Source: Thermoanaerobaculia bacterium (lineage in GTDB: Bacteria; Acidobacteriota; Thermoanaerobaculia; Gp7-AA8). From it: a stretch of DNA of 64,000 nt. Where the stretch lies: assembly GCA_035248585.1 (NCBI GenBank), contig DATFHJ010000107.1, positions 2,523 through 66,522 on the forward strand, read 5' to 3'. Positions 16,136-25,913 of this stretch are shown here, one piece after another (position 1 is the stretch's first letter; each line of letters begins with the position of its first letter). Both the position numbers and the translations under genes were made by a program. Under the pieces are notes generated by a model. The model was not told the DNA's origin. It did not search any database and worked only from the letters and a program-made list of their open reading frames with translations.

Positions 16136-16714
16136 TCACACCAACCGCGGCCCCGCGCACCACGCCGACAGGACGACCCGCTCGCCGCGCGTGACGCGGG
16201 AGACGGCGTGCATGGCGAAGCTGGGGAAGAAGAGGCAGTCGCCGCGATCGATCTTGAGGGTGCGGCGGTCGGCGATGGTGAGCTCGCCGCCGGCCCAGGC
16301 GCGCGCGGGAACGAGCGGGAGGATCGCCGTGATCTTGCTTTGGTCGGTGCTGGTGTAGTCGTAGTCGGTGTGCGGGCGGGTGTAGCCGCCGACGCCGTAC
16401 TTTTGAAGGCGCATCGGCTCGACGATCCCCGAAAGCGCGAAGCCCCAGACGTTGTACCGCGCGAACGCGCGCGCGATTTTCTGAAACGCCCACGCCGAGT
16501 CCTCGGGGCGCAGAAAGCAGTACTGCACGTCGCGTTTGATGCGCAGGCCGCCGCTCTTGTAGAAGCGCCCGTGTTCCTCCGCGAACGCGATCAGCTCGCG
16601 GCACTGATCGGCGGAGAAGAGCGAGCGGCAGACCGTGAACCAGCCCGGCTTCTGAATCGACTGCGGAACCGGGTAGACGATCTCATCGACTTCGAAGGGC
16701 ATGCGCGCTCCCAT
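16136..16714 (-). CDS. 2OG-Fe(II) oxygenase (prolyl-4-hydroxylase-like), last gene of the operon
   Basis: HTDYD...FAMHAVSRVTRGERV fits the HxD...H...R facial triad pattern. The ATG at 16714 overlaps the upstream stop (TGATG); an alternative ATG is at 16702. Confidence 0.7.
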   Translation of the reverse strand: MGARMPFEVDEIVYPVPQSIQKPGWFTVCRSLFSADQCRELIAFAEEHGRFYKSGGLRIKRDVQYCFLRPEDSAWAFQKIARAFARYNVWGFALSGIVEPMRLQKYGVGGYTRPHTDYDYTSTDQSKITAILPLVPARAWAGGELTIADRRTLKIDRGDCLFFPSFAMHAVSRVTRGERVVLSAWCAGPRLV

Positions 16715-17160
16715 CACACCTTGTTGTCGTTCAACCACTGGTCGAGGAAGTTGTAAAAGCGGGGATCGTAGGCGGCGCTGTGGTCGCGCAGCCAGGCCCG
16801 ATGCGTGCCGCCGAAGAGGCGCATCGAGCCGCAAAACCACGTCTTCATCTCCTGCTCCGATCCCAGGAACCAGAGATCATCGAGATAGCCGATGCACAGC
16901 CGGGCGATCAGGTCGTATTTCGGCGCCTCGTCGCCCGTGAATTTGTTCTTGTAGTCCGCGGTGTTCGCCGGATCCATGTACCTGGCGTTGTTGGCGAGCA
17001 TCTGCATCAGCGTGGACCACTCTTTCGTGCAGAACGTCCAGCGCCACTGGCGGATGCTGTTCCGCAACGTGTTGATGCCGACGATCAACGCGCAGAGGGT
17101 CAGGAACGGCGGAACGAAGGTGGCGACGAACCAGATCCAATCGCGCGCGGGTGCAGGCAT
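16714..17160 (-). CDS. Hypothetical single-pass membrane protein (148 aa)
   Basis: The ATG at 17160 lies 2 nt after the upstream stop. It has an N-terminal TM (WIWFVATFVPPFLTLCALIVGI), GC3-rich codons and no recognisable motif. Confidence 0.5.
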   Translation of the reverse strand: MPAPARDWIWFVATFVPPFLTLCALIVGINTLRNSIRQWRWTFCTKEWSTLMQMLANNARYMDPANTADYKNKFTGDEAPKYDLIARLCIGYLDDLWFLGSEQEMKTWFCGSMRLFGGTHRAWLRDHSAAYDPRFYNFLDQWLNDNKV

Positions 17161-17162
17161 GA

Positions 17163-18281
17163 TCAGTTCCTTTCGGCGATGACGGCGCGTTGCTGGACGA
17201 GCCACGACAGCATCGCCGCGGCGCGCGGGCGGGGCATGGCGTGCGACCAGCGGTCGAGGATCGCATGCGCGGGTGTGCGGGCGGCGATCGTGGCGACGAG
17301 CGGCGCGAGCGGCGTGCCGCCGAGGTAGACGACGTCGTCGCCGGCGGCGGTGCGGATGGCCGGCTCGAGCTCGACGAAGTCGCCGCGGATCGCGGGGGCG
17401 ATCACTTGCGCGTGCTCGTTCGTGGAGATAAGCAGGTCATCTGCAATCGCGGCGGGCGTTTCTTCGAACACTTCGTTCGTCCAGCGCGCGTGCTGCGCGG
17501 AGACGCGTTGCACGTGGGAGGTGTAGAAGCGGATCGCGGCGCCGGTGTTTTCGGGGCGGCGGAGGATCGTGTGCACGGCGGTCGAGGCGGCGATGGCGCT
17601 GCCGATCGCCGCTTGCACGCCGGAGGATGTGATCGGATCGATGGCGAAGGCGGCTTCGCCGATCGAGGCGGAGTGCTCGTCGATCGGTGCGTCGCAGACG
17701 TACGGCGTGGCGTCGAAGGCGTGCGGCGGCGACGTTGGGACGCTGTTCGTAAATTGGGATAACGCGCCGGTGTAGACGGCGGTGTAGGTCCCGTCGGGGA
17801 GCGTGGCGCCCCAGAACCAGTCGTCGCCGCGCCGGAGGAAGAGCGGCAACTGGCGTTGCCGCACTCCAAAGCGCGCGTGCCAGGCGATGAGGCGCGGGGC
17901 GGTGAAGCGGCGCGGGCGGCGGGAGAGGTTGGCGCGGCCGGTGGCGTCGATGAAGAACTGATGGACTGCGGCGGCAGAGCCGCCGCTTTGGAAAGCGGCG
18001 GCTCTGCCGCCGCAGTCCAAAAAGAGAACTTCGACGCCGGCATCGCGCGCGGCATCGAGCAGCATCGAATCGAATTGAGCGCGGTCGACGACGAGCGATT
18101 GCGGAGCCTCGAGGCCGAGGTTCGCGAGATGCACGCGCACCCCGGGCGAGAGCGACTCGCCGACGTGCGGGCGCGGGAACGTGCGGCGCTCGACGAGGCG
18201 CACCGAATGTCCCAGCTTCGCGAGGCGGATCGCGGCGGCGCTGCCGGCGGGACCGCCGCCGGCGATGAGGACGTCGATCAC
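17163..18281 (-). CDS. FAD-dependent oxidoreductase/monooxygenase, in the operon position of LodB/GoxB/QhpG
   Basis: The GTG at 18281 overlaps the upstream stop (GTGA). Dinucleotide-binding motif VLIAGGGPAGSAAAIRLAKLGHSVRLVER and GESLSPG are present. The rest of track ORF 17163-19280 is out-of-frame overlap with the rSAM gene. Confidence 0.8.
   Translation of the reverse strand: MIDVLIAGGGPAGSAAAIRLAKLGHSVRLVERRTFPRPHVGESLSPGVRVHLANLGLEAPQSLVVDRAQFDSMLLDAARDAGVEVLFLDCGGRAAAFQSGGSAAAVHQFFIDATGRANLSRRPRRFTAPRLIAWHARFGVRQRQLPLFLRRGDDWFWGATLPDGTYTAVYTGALSQFTNSVPTSPPHAFDATPYVCDAPIDEHSASIGEAAFAIDPITSSGVQAAIGSAIAASTAVHTILRRPENTGAAIRFYTSHVQRVSAQHARWTNEVFEETPAAIADDLLISTNEHAQVIAPAIRGDFVELEPAIRTAAGDDVVYLGGTPLAPLVATIAARTPAHAILDRWSHAMPRPRAAAMLSWLVQQRAVIAERN
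17963..18018. repeat. Double-hairpin palindromic element, family C (GGACT-GCGGCGGCagaGCCGCCGC-TTTGGAAA-GCGGCGGCtctGCCGCCGC-AGTCC), in frame inside the flavoprotein CDS
   Basis: The arms are perfect 27-nt reverse complements. Within the gene it encodes ...DCGGRAAAFQSGGSAAAV... Confidence 0.85.
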
Positions 18282-19495
18282 GCGAGCGCTCCGAGCTCGG
18301 CGTAGGTCTCGAGGCAGTAGTGCAGCCAGCCGCGGATGAAGTCGCACGCGGGGCGTCCGCGGTGGATGACTTCGTGATGGCATCCGCCGCCGCAGAGGTA
18401 GCGCGCCCAGCATGAGCGGCACGGCTCCTGCCGCATGACGTGGCGCTCGTCGAGCCAGCGCGACTGCCGCGCGCGATCCGGGCCCTGCGCGAGATCGCCC
18501 ATCGCCCCGGCCTCGTCGCCGACGAAACGATGGCAGGCGGAGAGCTCGCCGTCCGCGGAAACGCCGAGGTAGCTCGCGCCGGCGCCGCAGGGATAAGGAC
18601 GATGCGTGCCGCGGTCGAGCTCGCGCAACGCGTTGACGAGATTCGCGAACGCATAGCGCTCGCCGCGCCGCGCGCGGCGGCGGAGCTCGTCGCCGCACTC
18701 GATCATCGCGGCGAGCATTCGCTCGAGATCGCGCGCGTGCATTTCGTTGTCGTGCGACGGCGCGGTGAGCATCGGCGAAAAGCCGACGCTGTGAAATCCG
18801 CGCGCGAGCAGCTCGTCGAGCGTTTCCTTCAGCGCGAGATTGCGCGGCGTGACGGTCACGCGCGCGGAGACCTGCATCCGCCGCTGCATCCGCAGCAGCG
18901 GCTCGACGCGCGTCATCAACTCGTCGAAGCTCCCCCGTCCGCTCTTGAACGGCCGCTGCGCGTCGTGCGCGGCGCCGATGCCGTCGATGCTGATCGTGAC
19001 GGCGAAGGCGTGTTTCTCGAAGAACTCCGCATCGTCTTCGCGGAGCAGCGTGCCGTTCGTCGTGATCGAGAACGTTGCGCCTCGCGCCGCGGCGTACTCC
19101 GTTGCGCGCCGCACGACGTCGCGATTGATGAGCGGCTCGCCGCCGAGGAAGGCGATGTTCACTTTCTCGCCGGCAGGCAGCAGATCGATGGCGTCGATCG
19201 CTGTTTGCAACGGCATGTTCTTCGCGGCGCCGCCGAAATCGCCCTGCTGCGCGTAGCAGTACGTGCAGCCGAGGTTGCACTTCTGGGCGACGGCGAGCGA
19301 GATCGCGCGCAGCGGCGGATCGACGAGCGGCGCGTCGTCGACGAACGGCGGCGCATCGAGGCCGAGGGCGGCGAGCGTCGCCGCGTCGGGTGCGGCGACG
19401 AGCGCGGCGAACGAGGCGTCATCGAGCTCGTAGATGCGATTGCCGTTGGGGATGAGAATGTGCCGCTCGCCGAACAGATGGACGTCGGCGCTCAT
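18278..19495 (-). CDS. Radical SAM / SPASM-domain maturase (anSME/QhpD-like)
   Basis: The ATG at 19495 overlaps the upstream stop (ATGA). The rSAM cluster is CNLGCTYC. C-terminal auxiliary-cluster cysteines are CGAGASYLGVSADGELSACHRF and CRSCWARYLCGGGCHH. Confidence 0.85.
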   Translation of the reverse strand: MSADVHLFGERHILIPNGNRIYELDDASFAALVAAPDAATLAALGLDAPPFVDDAPLVDPPLRAISLAVAQKCNLGCTYCYAQQGDFGGAAKNMPLQTAIDAIDLLPAGEKVNIAFLGGEPLINRDVVRRATEYAAARGATFSITTNGTLLREDDAEFFEKHAFAVTISIDGIGAAHDAQRPFKSGRGSFDELMTRVEPLLRMQRRMQVSARVTVTPRNLALKETLDELLARGFHSVGFSPMLTAPSHDNEMHARDLERMLAAMIECGDELRRRARRGERYAFANLVNALRELDRGTHRPYPCGAGASYLGVSADGELSACHRFVGDEAGAMGDLAQGPDRARQSRWLDERHVMRQEPCRSCWARYLCGGGCHHEVIHRGRPACDFIRGWLHYCLETYAELGALA

Positions 19496-20355
19496 TCGCT
19501 GTCGCGCCCCCGGATCTCGAACTGCAGCACGGTTTCCCAGCGCCGGAACATGTCTTCGTACGAGTACCAGCCGGCGCCTGCTTCTTCGATCACGTACTGG
19601 CCGGGATTCTCGCCGCGCACCTGCATCCAGTTCTCGCCCGCGCTCGTGCCGGTCGCGCTGACGTCGACATTGACGAAGTCGGGGCGGCTGGCGGCCCAGT
19701 AGTAGCACGCGCACTCGCGATAGTCGTTCTGCCACGGCGAGCAGAGGCTCTGCGTGAGCTGGCCCGGCGAGATCAGGTCGCGGGCGATGACGGCCGTGCC
19801 GGGCTCGAAGAACGCGCGCACTTCGAGCTGGTACGGAACGATCTCGACGTCGGGCCGCACGGCACGCACCGCGCGCTTCTTCGTGAACTCGCACGTCACG
19901 AACTGCCCCGCTTCGCGCACGACCAGCGCCAGCGCGTTGGCCCATTCGAGCGCCGTTGGCCCGAGCTTCTCTACCTCGCCTTTCGCGCGGCGCGGGCCTT
20001 CGACGATGGTGATGATCTGCTGCTCGCCGCGCTGCAGGCGAATGCGCACGAGTCGATGGAAGAGCAGGTCTTTGTACTCGGGATCGGCGGCGACGACGAG
20101 GTTGTCCGACTCGTGCAACTCGATGCCTTTGAAGATGTTCTTCCAGACGTTGCGGAAGTCGAACTCGAGTCCGGGGAAGCAGTTCGAGATCGCGGTCGTC
20201 GGCAGCGTTCCGGGCGGATTTCCGGCGGCGCGATAGGAGAGCTGCTCCAGCAGCGCGTCCGCGGGAATCGCCTTCGGCGCGAAGTTTCCCTCCATCGCCT
20301 GCACGGCCAGCGGCTTCCCCGCGCGCGCCGTTTGATTGATCGGCTTCGCGCTCAT
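19492..20355 (-). CDS. LodA/GoxA-like oxidase, C-terminal half carrying the putative CTQ Cys/Trp motif
   Basis: CSPWQNDYRECACYYWAASRPDF resembles the CPWQADF...YWWP region of LodA-family quinoproteins. The ATG at 20355 overlaps the upstream stop (ATGA). Confidence 0.6.
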   Translation of the reverse strand: MSAKPINQTARAGKPLAVQAMEGNFAPKAIPADALLEQLSYRAAGNPPGTLPTTAISNCFPGLEFDFRNVWKNIFKGIELHESDNLVVAADPEYKDLLFHRLVRIRLQRGEQQIITIVEGPRRAKGEVEKLGPTALEWANALALVVREAGQFVTCEFTKKRAVRAVRPDVEIVPYQLEVRAFFEPGTAVIARDLISPGQLTQSLCSPWQNDYRECACYYWAASRPDFVNVDVSATGTSAGENWMQVRGENPGQYVIEEAGAGWYSYEDMFRRWETVLQFEIRGRDSE

Positions 20356-21719
20356 TCCTTTTCCTCCTCGGGGGGCGCCGGCGTGCTGAACACGACCTGC
20401 TCACTCGCCTGCCGGTTGCCCGAGCCGCGGATGGCGTTGTACTGCCGGCGCGTGAGCGCGAGGTGCAGTCCATCGCTGCCGCGCATCATCGCCGGCATCT
20501 TGCGGCGGCCTTTGTCGCTGAGGTCCCCGACTTCGTCCCACTCGCGCAGCACTTCGCTGAACCACGGCGCGCTGCCGCTTTGCAGCGCGGCGAAGACGCT
20601 TTGATGCAGCGCGCGCAGCGCGATCGTGTCGACGAGGGCGCGGGCCATGATCGGCTCGATCGCGCGTCCGAGGTAGCTGTCGTGCAGCACCATGCAGTTC
20701 GAAGGCTGGGGCGGATCGTCGGCCGTGACCGGATTCCCGTTCAGTACGACCGTGTTCTGCAGCCTCACGGTTTCGAACGCGCGCCGCAGGATTTCCTCGG
20801 TCCACTCCGGCGACACGTCTTCGTCCGCGACGTGCGGACCGAGGAGCACCTGTTCGAGCTCGTCGGCCACGGTGCGCACCGGAAAACTGTCGGGCGCGTA
20901 GTCGGGAGGTCCGGCGCCGATGCGCGCGAACGCAGACAAGTTCAACTTCGCGATGCGCACTTCGACGAGACCGTCGCATTCGTCGTCGAGATAGCCGCGG
21001 CTCGTGCTCCGCTCGTCGTCGAGGCGCGCGTAGATGTAGCCGGGATTCGTGATCGTCTCCGTGGGATTCATGTTGTCGTCGCTCCAGCCGTCCCACGCGC
21101 CGCGGCGGCTGTCGTAGATCACATCGGCGACGTCTTTGTCGCGCGTGAGGCGGCCGGTGGCGCCGTAGACCACGCCCTTGCCGGGCGTGAAGCGCGCGCG
21201 GATTTCCGGGAACTCGCCGGTCGGCTGGAGGAACTGCACGTCGCCGAACGGCAGCGTTTTCTTCGGCAGGAAATGCTCGCAGCGGCCGAGCAGCTTGTGC
21301 GGCGCGTGACCGGTGAACCAGCCGGTGTCGGCGTCGATGCGGTCGAGCGGATCGCGCGTGCGGCGAAACGCTTTCTGATTGCCGACCTGCACGCGCCACT
21401 CGACATCGCCGGCACTCACGTGCGCCATCGTCAGCGGCACGAGCGTGCCGTCGACGTCGGCCCAGACTTCGAGGAACGGCGCGACCGGCTTCACGCGCTT
21501 GCGTTTGTCCTGGAAGCGCACGGGATCGGGCGGCGTGTAGACGCGCGTGATGACGCCGCGCTTGCGGTCGACGTCGAACGTCGGCGCGCCGTGAAGCTCG
21601 CGAAAGCCGAGCGGATCGACTTCCGAGACGCGGACGTCGTAGTTTTCGAGCGGATCGGGCGACGAGCCGAGGCGGGCGATGGCGAGCGGCGGGAGGATGC
21701 GCAGCGCGCGGATCGTCAT
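20352..21719 (-). CDS. LodA/GoxA-like oxidase, N-terminal half
   Basis: The N-terminus MTIRALRILPPLAIARLGSSPDP resembles the HP(A/S)IG(I/V)ARLGNS opening of LodA-family proteins. The ATG at 21719 overlaps the upstream stop (ATGA). Confidence 0.6.
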   Translation of the reverse strand: MTIRALRILPPLAIARLGSSPDPLENYDVRVSEVDPLGFRELHGAPTFDVDRKRGVITRVYTPPDPVRFQDKRKRVKPVAPFLEVWADVDGTLVPLTMAHVSAGDVEWRVQVGNQKAFRRTRDPLDRIDADTGWFTGHAPHKLLGRCEHFLPKKTLPFGDVQFLQPTGEFPEIRARFTPGKGVVYGATGRLTRDKDVADVIYDSRRGAWDGWSDDNMNPTETITNPGYIYARLDDERSTSRGYLDDECDGLVEVRIAKLNLSAFARIGAGPPDYAPDSFPVRTVADELEQVLLGPHVADEDVSPEWTEEILRRAFETVRLQNTVVLNGNPVTADDPPQPSNCMVLHDSYLGRAIEPIMARALVDTIALRALHQSVFAALQSGSAPWFSEVLREWDEVGDLSDKGRRKMPAMMRGSDGLHLALTRRQYNAIRGSGNRQASEQVVFSTPAPPEEEKE

Positions 21720-23143
21720 TGGATCGCCTCCAGCCTTTCCTGCGCGTTGAGCAACCGCTCGACGATCTGCATCGCCAGCTCATCGTGATCCTTCAGCGCG
21801 CGGAGATAGGTGCGATGCGTTTCGCCGGCGACGTCGAGCTGGCCGATCAGTTTCGCCGCGCCGTTGATGAGATCGCGGTGCACGCGCCATTTGTCGGAGT
21901 CCCAGTCCGGCAGCGCGAGGGTGTACGGCGCCTGGAACGGCGGGCCGGCGCGCGCGTCGCCGCCGTCTTTGTCGAGCGGCAGCGAGACGAGGATCGAGGC
22001 GATCGAGCGGAGGTTGTACATCTCGCCGAACGTCCAGGCGATGAGATTGCCGCGCGCGGTCGGGCGATCGACGGGATCGCCTTCTTCGACGTGGAAGGCG
22101 TGCTTGAGCGTGAACAGGAGCTTGCGGTAGCGAAGGTTGAAGAGATTCGCCCACAACTGCGAGCGCGCGTTCGTGATGCGCGCGCAGCCGAGCGGTCCAT
22201 ACGTCGGAATCTCGTCCTCCGGCGCCGGCTCGGCCGTGGGATTCGTCGGGATGTTGCGCGACGGCGGATTCTCCTCGGGGAATGCCTCGTAGATGCGCAG
22301 GAAGCGGCTGAAGTGGGAGAGCTCGTCGTTGGCGCCGACCGGCGCTTCGCCCTGTTGGGCGATGTTGATGAGCGCTTTGACGGTCGAGGCACGGTCGATG
22401 GCCGGCAGCACGCGCACGTCCGGCGTTTTGGGCGGGAACTCGCGCCCGATGTTGCCGCGCTCGCCGGCGCCGTAGCCGCGCGCCCATTCATCCCACGAGG
22501 CCTGGTACGGCGCGGTGTCGGTGCGGAAGTCGGCGGCGGTGAGCACCTCTTCGTCTTCGAAGACGGCGATGAGCTCGCGATACAACACGCCGACCGGCAG
22601 GATCTCGCGGCCATCGTCCGCGCGCCGCGCGCGCTCTTTGATCTCCGCCGCCGCCGGGGTTTCCAGCCAGTCCTCCGGCGCCTCGGCGATCACATATTTC
22701 GCGAGCGATGCTTTCGTCGCCGGCTCGAGGACGAAGTGGAACGGATAGAACTCGCTGCGGAACGGATAGTCCTCGCGCTCGAGGTGCAGTGGACCGCCGA
22801 TGAGACGGAGGATGTTCTGCACGGTGATGAGATGTCCCATCTCCTCTTTGGCGATGCCGAGGATGACTTCGCGCCATTGCCGCGCTTTCTCGTGCTGGTC
22901 GCCGGCGACGGTGGTGCCGCCGAGGGAGTACGCGGCATAGAGGTACTGCACCATCAACGCATGCTCGACCTCGGAGGCGACATGCAGGAGGAAGACGGCG
23001 TAGTCGTGCCACGAAAGCTCGGGCGGCGGCTCGCGCCGCTCCGGCGCCGCGGCGGCGAGGCCCGCTTCTTCGAGCACCGCAGCCTCGCGCCGCGGGCGCG
23101 CCGCCGCCGTCGATACGAGGTACCTCCGCAGACTCGGTCGCAT
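21716..23143 (-). CDS. Ferritin-like four-helix-bundle protein (Pfam Ferritin-like / VioB-RebD-type domain), first gene of the operon
   Basis: HVASEVEHALMVQYLYAAYSL and IAKEEMGHLITVQNIL are the paired E..H helices typical of this family. Confidence 0.65.
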   Translation of the reverse strand: MRPSLRRYLVSTAAARPRREAAVLEEAGLAAAAPERREPPPELSWHDYAVFLLHVASEVEHALMVQYLYAAYSLGGTTVAGDQHEKARQWREVILGIAKEEMGHLITVQNILRLIGGPLHLEREDYPFRSEFYPFHFVLEPATKASLAKYVIAEAPEDWLETPAAAEIKERARRADDGREILPVGVLYRELIAVFEDEEVLTAADFRTDTAPYQASWDEWARGYGAGERGNIGREFPPKTPDVRVLPAIDRASTVKALINIAQQGEAPVGANDELSHFSRFLRIYEAFPEENPPSRNIPTNPTAEPAPEDEIPTYGPLGCARITNARSQLWANLFNLRYRKLLFTLKHAFHVEEGDPVDRPTARGNLIAWTFGEMYNLRSIASILVSLPLDKDGGDARAGPPFQAPYTLALPDWDSDKWRVHRDLINGAAKLIGQLDVAGETHRTYLRALKDHDELAMQIVERLLNAQERLEAIQ

Positions 23144-23188: not shown

Positions 23189-23217
23189 GAAAAGCGGTGG
23201 CTATGCCACCGCAGTCC
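23189..23217. repeat. Family C palindromic element, half copy with compensatory stem change
   Basis: GAAAAGCGGTGGCTATGCCACCGCAGTCC compares with the right half of 17963-18018. The C-to-T change and its partner G-to-A change keep the hairpin intact. Confidence 0.6.
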
Positions 23218-23223
23218 AAAGCG

Positions 23224-24228
23224 TCACTTGAAGTTCGTGAACGGCTCGAACGTCAATGCGAACGATCCGAAGCGCTGATTTTCGATCGCGCCCAAGGGTA
23301 CGTCGAATTCGGCCGAGCGCTCGATCACGGTGTACGTAAGGCGCCAGCGTTTGTAGCGTGCGGAGAAACCGGCGCGGAGGTCGTGAACGAGCTCCTTCGG
23401 ATCGGGCGCGCCGTCGAGCGTGGCGTTGTAGGGGACGTAGCGCGCGTACGCGCCGCCGAAGACGTAGACCTCATAGCGGTGCACCGGATTCGGGCTCGCG
23501 GCGTTGTTGATGACGCCGATGGGGAAGCCGGTGACGTGATAGCCGAGGCGCAGCGTGGCGCCGGCATTCGCGTTCGTTTGCGGGGATCCGAGCATGGCTC
23601 CGAATTCGGGAACGAGGTCGACGGTGTCGGGAACGAAGACGAAACGCCGCAATTGAAGGTAGCGCAGCGACAGCACGGGCTCGTTGTCCAACTGGTTGTG
23701 CCAGCCGCTCGGATCTTTGTCGCTGAAGCCGAGGGTGTTGTGCACGAACTTCTGCACGCGCTGCGCGCCGGCGCCGGGGCCCAGAATGCCGGCGTCGACT
23801 TCGAAGACGTGCATTTGGCGAAAGTCCGGATCGGTGATGCTCTCGGCGACGCCGGCATACAGCACACCCGCCCACGGACGATCGAACGGCTGCGGCGCGG
23901 CGATGGTGATGTTCTCGGGTGTGTAGAAGTTCTGGCCGAAGACCGCGCTGACGGAGGCGATGGGCGTCACGCCGTCGATGCCGCCGAGGTGGTTCCACGT
24001 CCAGTCGCGCACGGGCGTGACGAAACGCCAGTTCACGATGGTGTTGTCGGTGAACTGTGCGCTGATGCGGACGCCGTTCGTGTAGAAGCGATCGGACTTG
24101 CGGCCGATGCCGAAGTTGTCGTTTTCCCAGTAGACCGTCCACGAGTTGAATTTCCACGCGGCGGAGGCGGGAACGGCGGCGAGGAGGAGAAGCAATCCGA
24201 GCGTCTTGCGCATGACGAACATCCTCAT
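23224..24228 (-). CDS. LpxR-family (DUF2219) outer-membrane lipid A deacylase-like protein
   Basis: Signal peptide MRKTLGLLLLLAAVPASAA, then WENDNFGIGRKSDRFYTNGVRIS, and a beta-barrel-like C-terminus ending in F-x-F. The ATG at 24228 overlaps the upstream stop; an alternative ATG is at 24213. Confidence 0.7.
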   Translation of the reverse strand: MRMFVMRKTLGLLLLLAAVPASAAWKFNSWTVYWENDNFGIGRKSDRFYTNGVRISAQFTDNTIVNWRFVTPVRDWTWNHLGGIDGVTPIASVSAVFGQNFYTPENITIAAPQPFDRPWAGVLYAGVAESITDPDFRQMHVFEVDAGILGPGAGAQRVQKFVHNTLGFSDKDPSGWHNQLDNEPVLSLRYLQLRRFVFVPDTVDLVPEFGAMLGSPQTNANAGATLRLGYHVTGFPIGVINNAASPNPVHRYEVYVFGGAYARYVPYNATLDGAPDPKELVHDLRAGFSARYKRWRLTYTVIERSAEFDVPLGAIENQRFGSFALTFEPFTNFK

Positions 24229-25913
24229 GATTGAAAGTCGACCCTGGAGAAGCCCGTGAGCGACGTGTTCTTGCAGCTGGCGGTGCGGCCCATGCCGAAC
24301 TGCGCGAACGCGGCGCGGATCTCGCGCTCGATGTCTGCCGCGCGCGGCAGGGCGAGGCGGGTGTTGGAATCGAGAAGGGCGTTGCGCGCGTCGATGAACG
24401 TCGGATTCACCTTCAGGCGCTTCATCGAGTCGACGACGAGACGCCACGCGGTCTCCTGTCCCGCCGCCTTGTTGACGTCGTCATCGGCGAACATCGCACG
24501 CAGCGATTCGTGCATGCGGATCAGCGCGGCCGCGAAGATGCTCCCGGCGCCATGCTGATCGTTGAACGGCGGCGTGCCGAGCCGCGTCACGCTGGAGGAG
24601 AAGTTGTCGTACGGATGCGGGCGCGCGCCGCCCGGCTTCTTCGACGCGAACTCGGCGAACGTGAAGCGGCGCGCGAGGCTCGCTGTGCCGCGGTAGAAGT
24701 TGAGGATCGTGACGGCGAAGTAATCGCTCCAGGCCTCGCCGAGGGCGAGACTCTGCGGCTTGCTGAGCGCGTCTTTCTGCAGGCGGCCGGACACGAGCCG
24801 CTGGGAAACGCCGTGGGCGAACTCGTGAATGACCACGCCGGCATCGAGCGCGGTCGGATTGCCGATCTGATTGTCCTGCTTCCAGAGCCCGAGCGTGAGC
24901 TCGGCGGGCGCGCCGTCGTTCTGCGCGCGCATGTTCGCGCCGCTCGCCGTCGACACGCTGACCACGAGCCGGTCGCCCGCTGTTCCTTCGCCGTCGAAGT
25001 TCTTCTCCTGGAAATTGCCATCGCGCTCGCTGAATCCGATCAACGAGAAAAAGTCGTGCATCGAATTGCAGACGAAGAAGGCATTGACGGCCTGCTCCTC
25101 CGCGGAGCCGGCGTTCGGCGTGAAGCGGCGCAGCGGCCCTTCCATCACCGACGTCACTTCGCACTTCTTCGTCCCCAGTTTCATCAGGACGTTGTTGCCG
25201 TCCGGCTGATCCTTCGTGACCCAGTCGCGAAAGTCCGCCGCCGGACGAAGGCCCGGCGGATAGTGAGCGAGCGGCCGCGGGAACACGAAGTCGCGCGCGG
25301 GCGGCTCGCCTTTGCCGAACGCGAACACGCTCGCGATGCACGCGCTCGCGGAGACCGCGGCGCAATCGAGGATCGCGGCGGTTTTCCCGTGCGCCGCGAC
25401 GGCAATCGTGAAGTCGACGACGTCCTTCACGTGCATCGACACCAGCCACGCCAGCACCGGCCGCGGCTCGCAGAGCACCACGAGGTGCGCCATCACCGGC
25501 TCGTCGAACGGACCGGGCGTGAGCACGGTCGGCCGGTTCGCCATCGGAAATGACGAGACGACACGGGGCCGGAATCCCCGATCCCAGAACAGCGTCGCGT
25601 GCGGCGTATGGCACCCGCCATTGCCGCCGGCGCGCACGTGCCGGAAGGCCGCGCGCACCGCCTTCTCGACGCCGATATCCGGGATGACCTCGAGAGTGCC
25701 AACATCGACGAGCGGGTCGCCGATCGACGCCGGCCGCCCGTTGGCCTTGACCTCGACGACGACCGAGCGCGGAAAGAGCGCAATGCCGCGATGGTGCTGC
25801 TGCCCGTGAACGCTGCAGCCTCCGCCGAGCAGATGCTGGACGTGCGGGTCAAACAGCACGTCCGCATCTGCGAGGTGGTTCTCCGCTTTTCGAAGAGCCT
25901 GCTGCGCGTCCAT
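24225..25913 (-). CDS. M36 (fungalysin-like) zinc metallopeptidase; no obvious signal peptide
   Basis: HExxH appears in VVIHEFAHGVSQRL and the third-ligand motif in LGEAWSDYF. Confidence 0.8.
   Translation of the reverse strand: MDAQQALRKAENHLADADVLFDPHVQHLLGGGCSVHGQQHHRGIALFPRSVVVEVKANGRPASIGDPLVDVGTLEVIPDIGVEKAVRAAFRHVRAGGNGGCHTPHATLFWDRGFRPRVVSSFPMANRPTVLTPGPFDEPVMAHLVVLCEPRPVLAWLVSMHVKDVVDFTIAVAAHGKTAAILDCAAVSASACIASVFAFGKGEPPARDFVFPRPLAHYPPGLRPAADFRDWVTKDQPDGNNVLMKLGTKKCEVTSVMEGPLRRFTPNAGSAEEQAVNAFFVCNSMHDFFSLIGFSERDGNFQEKNFDGEGTAGDRLVVSVSTASGANMRAQNDGAPAELTLGLWKQDNQIGNPTALDAGVVIHEFAHGVSQRLVSGRLQKDALSKPQSLALGEAWSDYFAVTILNFYRGTASLARRFTFAEFASKKPGGARPHPYDNFSSSVTRLGTPPFNDQHGAGSIFAAALIRMHESLRAMFADDDVNKAAGQETAWRLVVDSMKRLKVNPTFIDARNALLDSNTRLALPRAADIEREIRAAFAQFGMGRTASCKNTSLTGFSRVDFQS

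Follow-up and report, generated by a model that had tools for sequence, protein, structure and literature searches.

A tightly packed gene cassette on the minus strand of a 64,000-nucleotide (nt) stretch of DNA from a Thermoanaerobaculia bacterium (contig DATFHJ010000107.1; the whole stretch is called the window) encodes relatives of the quinoproteins LodA and GoxA in two adjoining genes. The large-subunit gene (N; 20352..21719, 455 aa) corresponds to the N-terminal two thirds of LodA and GoxA, and the small-subunit gene (C; 19492..20355, 287 aa) bears the predicted cofactor loop (residues 197-226, PGQLTQSLCSPWQNDYRECACYYWAASRPD, 19678..19767, minus strand). These two open reading frames (ORFs) are a genuine, conserved two-gene architecture and not a broken gene. 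We consider it reasonably likely that N and C are the large and small subunits of a heteromeric quinoprotein, which would be a distant homologue of the single-chain LodA/GoxA oxidases matured in the style of quinohaemoprotein amine dehydrogenase (QHNDH). C215 and W220 of the small subunit are the predicted cysteine tryptophylquinone (CTQ) pair, and C205-D211 and C217-D226 are the predicted thioethers.

The cassette opens with the gene of a ferritin-like protein (21716..23143, 475 aa; PF12902, E = 1.6e-27), a putative two-metal four-helix-bundle partner. N and C come next, followed by the genes of a radical S-adenosylmethionine (rSAM)/SPASM enzyme (18278..19495, 405 aa), whose nearest family is QhpD, and of a flavin adenine dinucleotide (FAD) monooxygenase (17163..18281, 372 aa), hereafter the flavoprotein, whose nearest family is QhpG. 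All lie on the minus strand. The successive junctions are ATGA stop/start overlaps at 21716-21719, 20352-20355 and 19492-19495 and a GTGA overlap at 18278-18281, and the five genes form a translationally coupled cassette; a 2-nt gap and a 1-nt overlap then lead to two additional genes, described below. At the junction of N and C, the plus strand reads tcat at 20352-20355, which is ATGA on the minus strand, so that the N stop overlaps the C start. The first-pass annotation had reported two ORFs of 455 and 287 aa meeting at an ATGA, with an N tail ending in STPAPPEEEKE and a C start MSAKPINQ, and all of this is seen as described. The segment CSPWQNDYRECACYYW is also present in C, with C205 and W220 15 residues apart. 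The summed length of N and C is 742 aa, compared with 726 aa for the LodA chain and 816 aa for the GoxA chain in the PDB.

The split between N and C is ancient, recurrent and under purifying selection. Among 85 loci scored, 65 have the two genes separated at the same linker and 19 have them fused, and the remaining one is truncated by a contig end. Wherever the contigs are long enough to tell, the genes come in the order ferritin-like, N, C, rSAM, flavoprotein. The check suggested in the first-pass annotation, whether orthologues in related genomes are split at this linker, thus has a positive outcome. Homologues of N fall into more than 1800 clusters, mostly of 450-470 aa with a minority of 717-754 aa, and those of C into more than 1300 (at least 1345), mostly of 260-300 aa. 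In the fused relatives, a short Pro/Ala-rich linker is read straight through where the window has the ...EEEKE stop and the MSAKP start. A tree of the C parts, built by a quick method and unrooted, requires at least five to six changes between split and fused states and does not give their direction, fission or fusion. In this tree, the window, L006, L007, L008 and L009 constitute an all-split group, of which the sister L003 is fused. All four relatives in the window clade have separate N and C ORFs, and three of them, with 62-72% identity in C, have the ATGA junction. In L006, the nearest relative (94% identical in C), the N reading frame ends early and the ATGA is still present at the C start. 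Across the split relatives, junctions are most often the 4-nt ATGA overlap (31 cases), and 7 have an 8-nt overlap. The ratio of non-synonymous to synonymous substitution rates (dN/dS) relative to L006 is 0.09 for N, 0.11 for C, 0.16 for the rSAM gene, 0.19 for the flavoprotein gene and 0.23 for the ferritin-like gene; 0.09-0.23 is also the range across the six cassette genes that are comparable with L006.

These results bear on the alternative, also raised in the first-pass annotation, that a frameshift in a single-chain LodA-like gene produced the split, through either a sequencing error or decay to a pseudogene. Such an origin could be suspected from the fused relatives, from the source of the window, a metagenome-assembled genome (MAG) of 501 contigs, and from the frameshift-like breaks in the N, rSAM and flavoprotein genes of L006. 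However, with 65 of the 85 loci split, the window clade split throughout, ATGA junctions in that clade, the C ORF having its own ATG placed exactly at the N stop, and the low dN/dS of both genes, a frameshift artefact or pseudogene is excluded for practical purposes, and we regard it as extremely improbable. With regard to L006 itself (uncultured Acidobacteriota MAG MFD09212.bin.1.4), the N, rSAM and flavoprotein genes each lie in two frames and C is intact; these breaks may stem from indel errors in the assembly and need not reflect real decay. The same MAG holds a second, fused copy (L016), which has a ferritin-like gene and is without maturase genes of its own.

Judging from profile alignments, both halves are distant homologues of LodA and GoxA. 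A profile built from fused and split members matches the GoxA chains with E = 6e-4 in five collinear stretches across both halves, including ILPPLAIARLG (IYPPLGIARVG in GoxA), WRVRVGNIKAF (WRVEVANKKSF in GoxA; WRVxVGNxKAF as the family form), YLDDECDG...GPPDYAPD (WFDDICDG...TPPDYAP in GoxA) and PGELTQSLCSPWQNDYREC (PGDLTKWMGIPWQSDAASC in GoxA). The profile of the C half matches LodA likewise, and its comparison with canonical LodA_C proteins by hhalign gives a probability of 91.9% and E = 6.9e-7. The Pfam model LodA_N (PF17990) scores 17.4 bits on N (cut-off 26.3), and LodA_C (PF18417) scores 22.8 bits on C and 24.3 bits on the loop fragment alone (cut-off 25). The label of LodA-like oxidase given in the first-pass annotation therefore holds as a distant homology of both halves, with Pfam scores that stay below the cut-offs. 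A sequence search of the PDB found nothing with the N half and only a weak match to the QHNDH gamma subunit QhpC with the C half. The AlphaFold2 (AF2) model of a natural fused homologue, P0023, has a mean predicted local distance difference test score (pLDDT) of 84.9 and a predicted template modelling score (pTM) of 0.89, and the top 50 PDB matches of this model in Foldseek are all GoxA or LodA (E about 1e-10). As both N and C carry motifs that align with GoxA and LodA, they probably act together as one enzyme. No second copy was found in the genome of the window.

The loop of the small subunit follows the invariant pattern C205-x5-D211-x3-C215-x-C217-x2-W220-x5-D226. All 86 C sequences share C155, C205, C215, C217, W208, W220, W243, W273, D211, E214 and D226; Y219 is also invariant, and position 218 is Y or F. 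D211 and C215 align with D512 and C516 of LodA and with D678 and C682 of GoxA, and C205 aligns with Ala or Gly in these two enzymes. In order to locate the cofactor Trp, canonical LodA_C proteins above the Pfam cut-off were fetched from gammaproteobacterial genomes. In these proteins, the cofactor Cys is separated from a conserved (W/F)WPAxxP(D) motif by an insertion that varies in length, giving the general form ...PWQxDxxxC...WWPAxxPD. Two of them have the second W at +5 from the Cys and two at about +15, which matches the known +15 of GoxA; in others, the spacing is longer. The hhalign alignment pairs ...PWQNDYREC----ACYYWAASRPD of the window with the canonical ...PWQADFLECRLDGGNGWWPAQRPD, and W220 falls on the second W of WWPAxxPD, at a C215-W220 spacing of +5. 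On the strength of the alignments to LodA, GoxA and canonical LodA_C, C215 is the homologue of the cofactor Cys and W220 that of the cofactor Trp.

The first-pass annotation had instead proposed a GoxA-like Cys(i)/Trp(i+15) pair, namely C205 and W220. The Trp was chosen correctly. The Cys was not: C205 is not homologous to the cofactor Cys, the alignments to LodA, GoxA and canonical LodA_C rule out the i/i+15 pairing and put C215, five residues before W220, at that position, and the residue at +15 from C215 is V230. By these alignments, the match of CSPWQNDYRECACYYW to the GoxA spacing is a coincidence. W243 and W273, which the long Cys-Trp spacing of LodA had brought up as candidate cofactor residues, were rejected, the canonical Trp sitting in the WWPAxxPD motif that corresponds to W220. 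The Cys-Trp spacing in LodA/GoxA varies from +5 to about +65 through the insertion between the two blocks, an explanation of which we found no statement in the papers cited here.

C205 and C217 alone are specific to the split/fused family and to QhpC, and these extra cysteines co-occur with the rSAM gene. Five canonical LodA_C loci, inspected with about 8 kb of flank, are without the extra cysteines and without an rSAM or ferritin-like gene; in four of the five, a flavoprotein gene adjoins the LodA-like gene. In the AF2 model of P0023, five segments fall below a pLDDT of 50. Four of them (NCFPG, SLCSPWQ, ECACYYWAA and AMMRNADS) are the invariant Cys/Trp motifs and a conserved loop of the N half, and the fifth, FTTPT, lies in the inter-domain linker. 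These islands of low confidence fit a site that would be shaped by covalent modification, which is no proof of it.

The only sequence match of the C half in the PDB is the QHNDH gamma subunit 1jmx_G (phmmer, E = 2.2). A 65-aa loop fragment scores 15.7 bits (E = 0.015, cut-off 25) against the Pfam family QH-AmDH_gamma (PF08992), and an hhalign comparison with four QhpC sequences taken from genomes covers 45 columns at P = 0.006. All three comparisons agree on the register: C205 is placed on Cys27, D211 on Asp33, C215 on Cys37, C217 on Cys41, W220 on Trp43 and D226 on Asp49. The QhpC pattern is C27-x5-D33-x3-C37-x3-C41-x-W43-x5-D49, and its crosslink positions are all occupied in the loop of the window. 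In QhpC, Cys37 and Trp43 form the CTQ, the thioethers Cys27-Asp33 and Cys41-Asp49 are made by QhpD, and QhpG dihydroxylates Trp43 within the Cys41-Asp49 ring (PMC8172795, PMC7876137). QhpC has a further link, Cys7-Glu16, for which C155 was considered as a candidate counterpart and none was identified.

It is possible, at slightly less than even chances together with the proposal of a third class made below, that LodA/GoxA and QhpC are bridged by the shared Asp-x3-Cys ... WWPAxxPD arrangement, which would imply a common origin of the 9-kDa QHNDH gamma subunit and the LodA cofactor loop. As a separate observation, the canonical LodA_C proteins (L091-L097) and the QhpC proteins (L087-L090) both have Asp-x3-Cys and then (W/F)WPAxxPD. 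QhpC was not found in the genome of the window. Nitrincola alkalilacustris (G003; L084/L087) has a genuine QhpC (PF08992, 138 bits) alongside a fused LodA-like member with its own rSAM gene; the two systems thus coexist in one organism, and the maturases of the cassette are not simply borrowed QHNDH genes.

Among the NCBIfam families, QhpD (TIGR03906) is the best match of the window rSAM enzyme, at 292 bits (cut-off 453), followed by PapB at 256 bits and a second PapB/CteB-type match at 210 bits. QhpD is also the best match of every orthologous rSAM enzyme, with scores of 315-354 bits, below the same cut-off. The 81 rSAM sequences compared retain the CxxxCxxC motif (C73/C77/C80) and eight cysteines of the SPASM domain. 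Four loci of the family have no adjacent rSAM gene; in three of the four genomes, an orthologue with 58-92% identity lies a few kb away or at another site. A hidden precursor of a ribosomally synthesised and post-translationally modified peptide (RiPP) was considered as the rSAM substrate and rejected, as the overlapping genes leave no intergenic space. These overlapping junctions leave the neighbouring 287-aa protein as the only plausible substrate.

The window flavoprotein scores 176 bits on QhpG (NF049967, cut-off 240), compared with 65 bits on GoxB and 59 bits on LodB (cut-off 400), and its intact orthologues (L001-L003) reach 262-314 bits on QhpG, above the cut-off. At 372 aa, it is the shortest of the family, the orthologues having 399-483 aa. 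About 27 residues are missing after the FAD-binding motif, a deletion common to L006, and about 20 are missing where a palindrome now sits; the two deletions are shared in part with L006 and L007. Since its dN/dS relative to L006 is 0.19, the flavoprotein is probably still functional. The palindrome itself (17962..18019) is a perfect 28+28-nt repeat that encodes ...CGGRAAAFQSGGSAAAV... in frame within the flavoprotein gene, and it is absent at the matching site in L006 and L007. It belongs to a dispersed repeat family: its arm has 26 matches with at most two mismatches over about 22 contigs of the same genome, the reversed control having none, and a diverged half copy lies at 23191-23217, just upstream of the operon.

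In 77 of the 85 loci, N is preceded by the gene of the ferritin-like, putatively two-metal protein, which is an obligate partner. E60, H61, E100, E101, H104, E154, E266, H277 and E374 are invariant in 54 ferritin-like sequences, and conservation of these nine residues and of H348 reaches at least 93% across 79 sequences; they include the ExxH pair E101/H104. No PDB match was found by sequence. The AF2 model is a confident helical bundle (pLDDT 88). By fold, it comes closest in the PDB to 3HL1, an uncharacterised ferritin-like protein from structural genomics, ahead of ferritins and bacterioferritins, so that the fold does not point to a function. The partner may serve as an electron acceptor, as an oxidant or in the last maturation step. 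A PF12902 gene was also reported next to fungal lodA-like genes in the 2015 survey of such genes (PMC4417212). 3HL1 is CC_0557 of Caulobacter vibrioides, and this organism is the only one among 14 control genomes with a LodA_C match above the cut-off.

From these elements, a maturation sequence can be proposed. The rSAM enzyme would form the thioethers C205-D211 and C217-D226, thereby stapling the loop of the small subunit. The QhpG-like flavoprotein would then dihydroxylate W220 within the C217-D226 ring, as QhpG does on Trp43, and C215 would attack the oxidised indole of W220 to give the CTQ. The mature N/C enzyme would oxidise a primary amine or an amino acid in the cytoplasm. Inspection by eye, with no predictor run, shows no signal peptide at the N-terminus of either N or C, and the cassette has no exporter gene and no leader protease gene; the enzyme is therefore probably cytoplasmic, unlike QHNDH. 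The first-pass annotation had compared the 287-aa chain with the small CTQ subunit of QHNDH. The analogy is supported by QhpD and QhpG being the nearest maturase families and by the alignment of the loop with QhpC; what does not hold is the need for a separate chain, as 19 of the 85 relatives are fused and a free small chain is thus not needed for maturation.

Several points weigh against the heteromeric quinoprotein as set out above. Each family match of N and C is below its curated cut-off, and the TM-scores of the Foldseek matches to LodA/GoxA are only 0.23-0.41, so that the relationship is distant. The similarities to QhpC are individually weak, and D211 and D226 are also conserved in canonical LodA-like proteins without an rSAM enzyme. 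The window rSAM enzyme is without most of the N-terminal region that binds the leader peptide in QhpD, and in the L037 genome, a MAG of uncertain completeness, the invariant cysteines are present and no rSAM orthologue was found. The flavoprotein, with its internal deletions and repeat insertion, scores below the QhpG cut-off. The CTQ, the thioethers and the catalytic activity are predicted from alignment and gene context.

Some of these points would also be expected if C155, C205, C215 and C217 bound a metal or an Fe-S cluster without being crosslinked, the rSAM enzyme and the flavoprotein then modifying another residue, the ferritin-like protein or a small molecule. The C-x9-C-x-C pattern combined with a distant Cys could plausibly bind a metal, AF2 fails to place the cysteine-bearing segments, and the shortened rSAM enzyme and the L037 genome are in line with such a role. 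However, C215 sits at the position homologous to the CTQ Cys of three characterised enzymes, the rSAM enzyme belongs to the QhpD/PapB clade, in which the known chemistry is the formation of thioethers from Cys to Asp/Glu, and the Cys-Asp spacings match those of QhpC, with the extra cysteines co-occurring with the rSAM gene. We therefore regard a metal site as quite improbable. It is also conceivable, and in our view unlikely, that the loop is modified without yielding a CTQ, carrying only the staples, a hydroxylated Trp without a link to Cys, or a Tyr-derived cofactor at Y219 or Y218, in which case the protein would be no amine or amino-acid oxidase. The distance from LodA/GoxA, the conservation of the two tyrosine positions, the obligate ferritin-like partner, which has no counterpart in the characterised CTQ enzymes, and the 2-oxoglutarate (2OG) oxygenase added in the window clade, which hints at other chemistry, are compatible with this. 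In contrast, the Asp-x3-Cys motif and the WWPA-type Trp are invariant in all 86 C sequences, and a QhpG-type Trp dihydroxylase belongs to the cassette, which argues for the CTQ of the heteromeric quinoprotein.

The 2OG-Fe(II) oxygenase belongs to the two additional genes at the end of the operon. The first of these (16714..17160, minus strand), separated from the flavoprotein gene by the 2-nt gap, is a clade-specific addition that encodes a 148-aa small protein with a hydrophobic N-terminal segment and no Pfam match; among the 85 loci scored, a homologue was seen only in the record behind L005/L009. The second (16136..16714, minus strand) overlaps it by one base (TGATG) and encodes the oxygenase, of about 192 aa (PF13640, E = 3.6e-12). 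This gene is an addition specific to the acidobacterial clade: it follows the flavoprotein gene only in L004-L007 and L009, and is absent from the myxobacterial, actinobacterial and proteobacterial cassettes. Upstream of the operon, on the same strand, the region 23224-25913 encodes an LpxR-family outer-membrane lipid A deacylase (PF09982, E = 1.5e-59) and an M36 fungalysin-like metalloprotease (PF02128, E = 2.7e-54), whose ORFs overlap at 24225-24447. This unit is separate from the quinoprotein cassette.

A pattern scan of one genome per species found the cassette in at least 419 of 185,579 species genomes, distributed over ten or more phyla, and the N and C proteins for which a source name is given bear the annotation hypothetical. 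The full-text literature searched, with subscription journals largely outside its coverage, yielded no account of such a gene combination. A 2025 review names the CTQ in three enzymes only, QHNDH, LodA and GoxA (PMC11951088), and a 2015 survey listed 168 lodA-like genes with E < 1e-10 against GoxA as the criterion (PMC4417212). As its profile reaches GoxA with E = 6e-4, the present family would have been missed by that survey. If the heteromeric quinoprotein is confirmed, more architectures than those named would carry the CTQ, and the evolutionary link between QhpC and LodA would become testable. The family would also provide an rSAM enzyme that modifies a folded protein of 30-80 kDa, in naturally split and fused forms, which would be useful for the study of substrate recognition. 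In annotations, N and C should carry names as subunits of a single enzyme, without a flag for a broken gene.

Among known systems, the PapB/CteB-type rSAM/SPASM maturases of ranthipeptides and SCIFF (six cysteines in forty-five residues) peptides resemble the cassette in being the second-best match of the rSAM enzyme and in using the same Cys-to-Asp/Glu thioether chemistry. They differ by a short precursor peptide gene, of which there is none in the cassette of the window. QHNDH shares more features with the cassette: a CTQ chain that is a separate polypeptide, the C-x5-D-x3-C...C..W-x5-D loop, and QhpD and QhpG as the nearest maturase families. In contrast, QhpC is a 9-kDa peptide with a cleaved 28-residue leader, whereas the carrier in the window is a 287-aa LodA_C-like domain. 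The spacings within the loop also differ, C215-C217 being 2 (4 in QhpC) and C217-W220 being 3 (2 in QhpC). The dihaem subunit QhpA, the QhpB propeller, the QhpE protease and the QhpF exporter were not found by Pfam among the seven cassette proteins or in the gene tables of five related loci, with QhpA and QhpB not searched genome-wide.

LodA (L-lysine epsilon-oxidase) and GoxA (glycine oxidase) are single-chain CTQ quinoproteins with the flavoprotein maturases LodB and GoxB. They share with the window the scaffold of both halves, the Asp-x3-Cys motif, the WWPAxxPD-type Trp, a downstream flavoprotein gene and a similar total length. The window differs from them by its two genes, by the two extra invariant cysteines flanking the cofactor residues, by the rSAM/SPASM gene and by the obligatory ferritin-like partner, and its flavoprotein is of the QhpG type, as opposed to the LodB/GoxB type found beside LodA and GoxA. 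The two routes of CTQ maturation, by an rSAM enzyme with QhpG and by LodB/GoxB, have been treated as separate, and the cassette combines a LodA scaffold with the logic of QHNDH. We therefore tentatively propose, at odds a little short of even, that it represents a third, hybrid class of tryptophylquinone enzymes, characterised by a LodA fold in two chains or one, an rSAM staple combined with QhpG-type hydroxylation, and an obligate ferritin-like partner.

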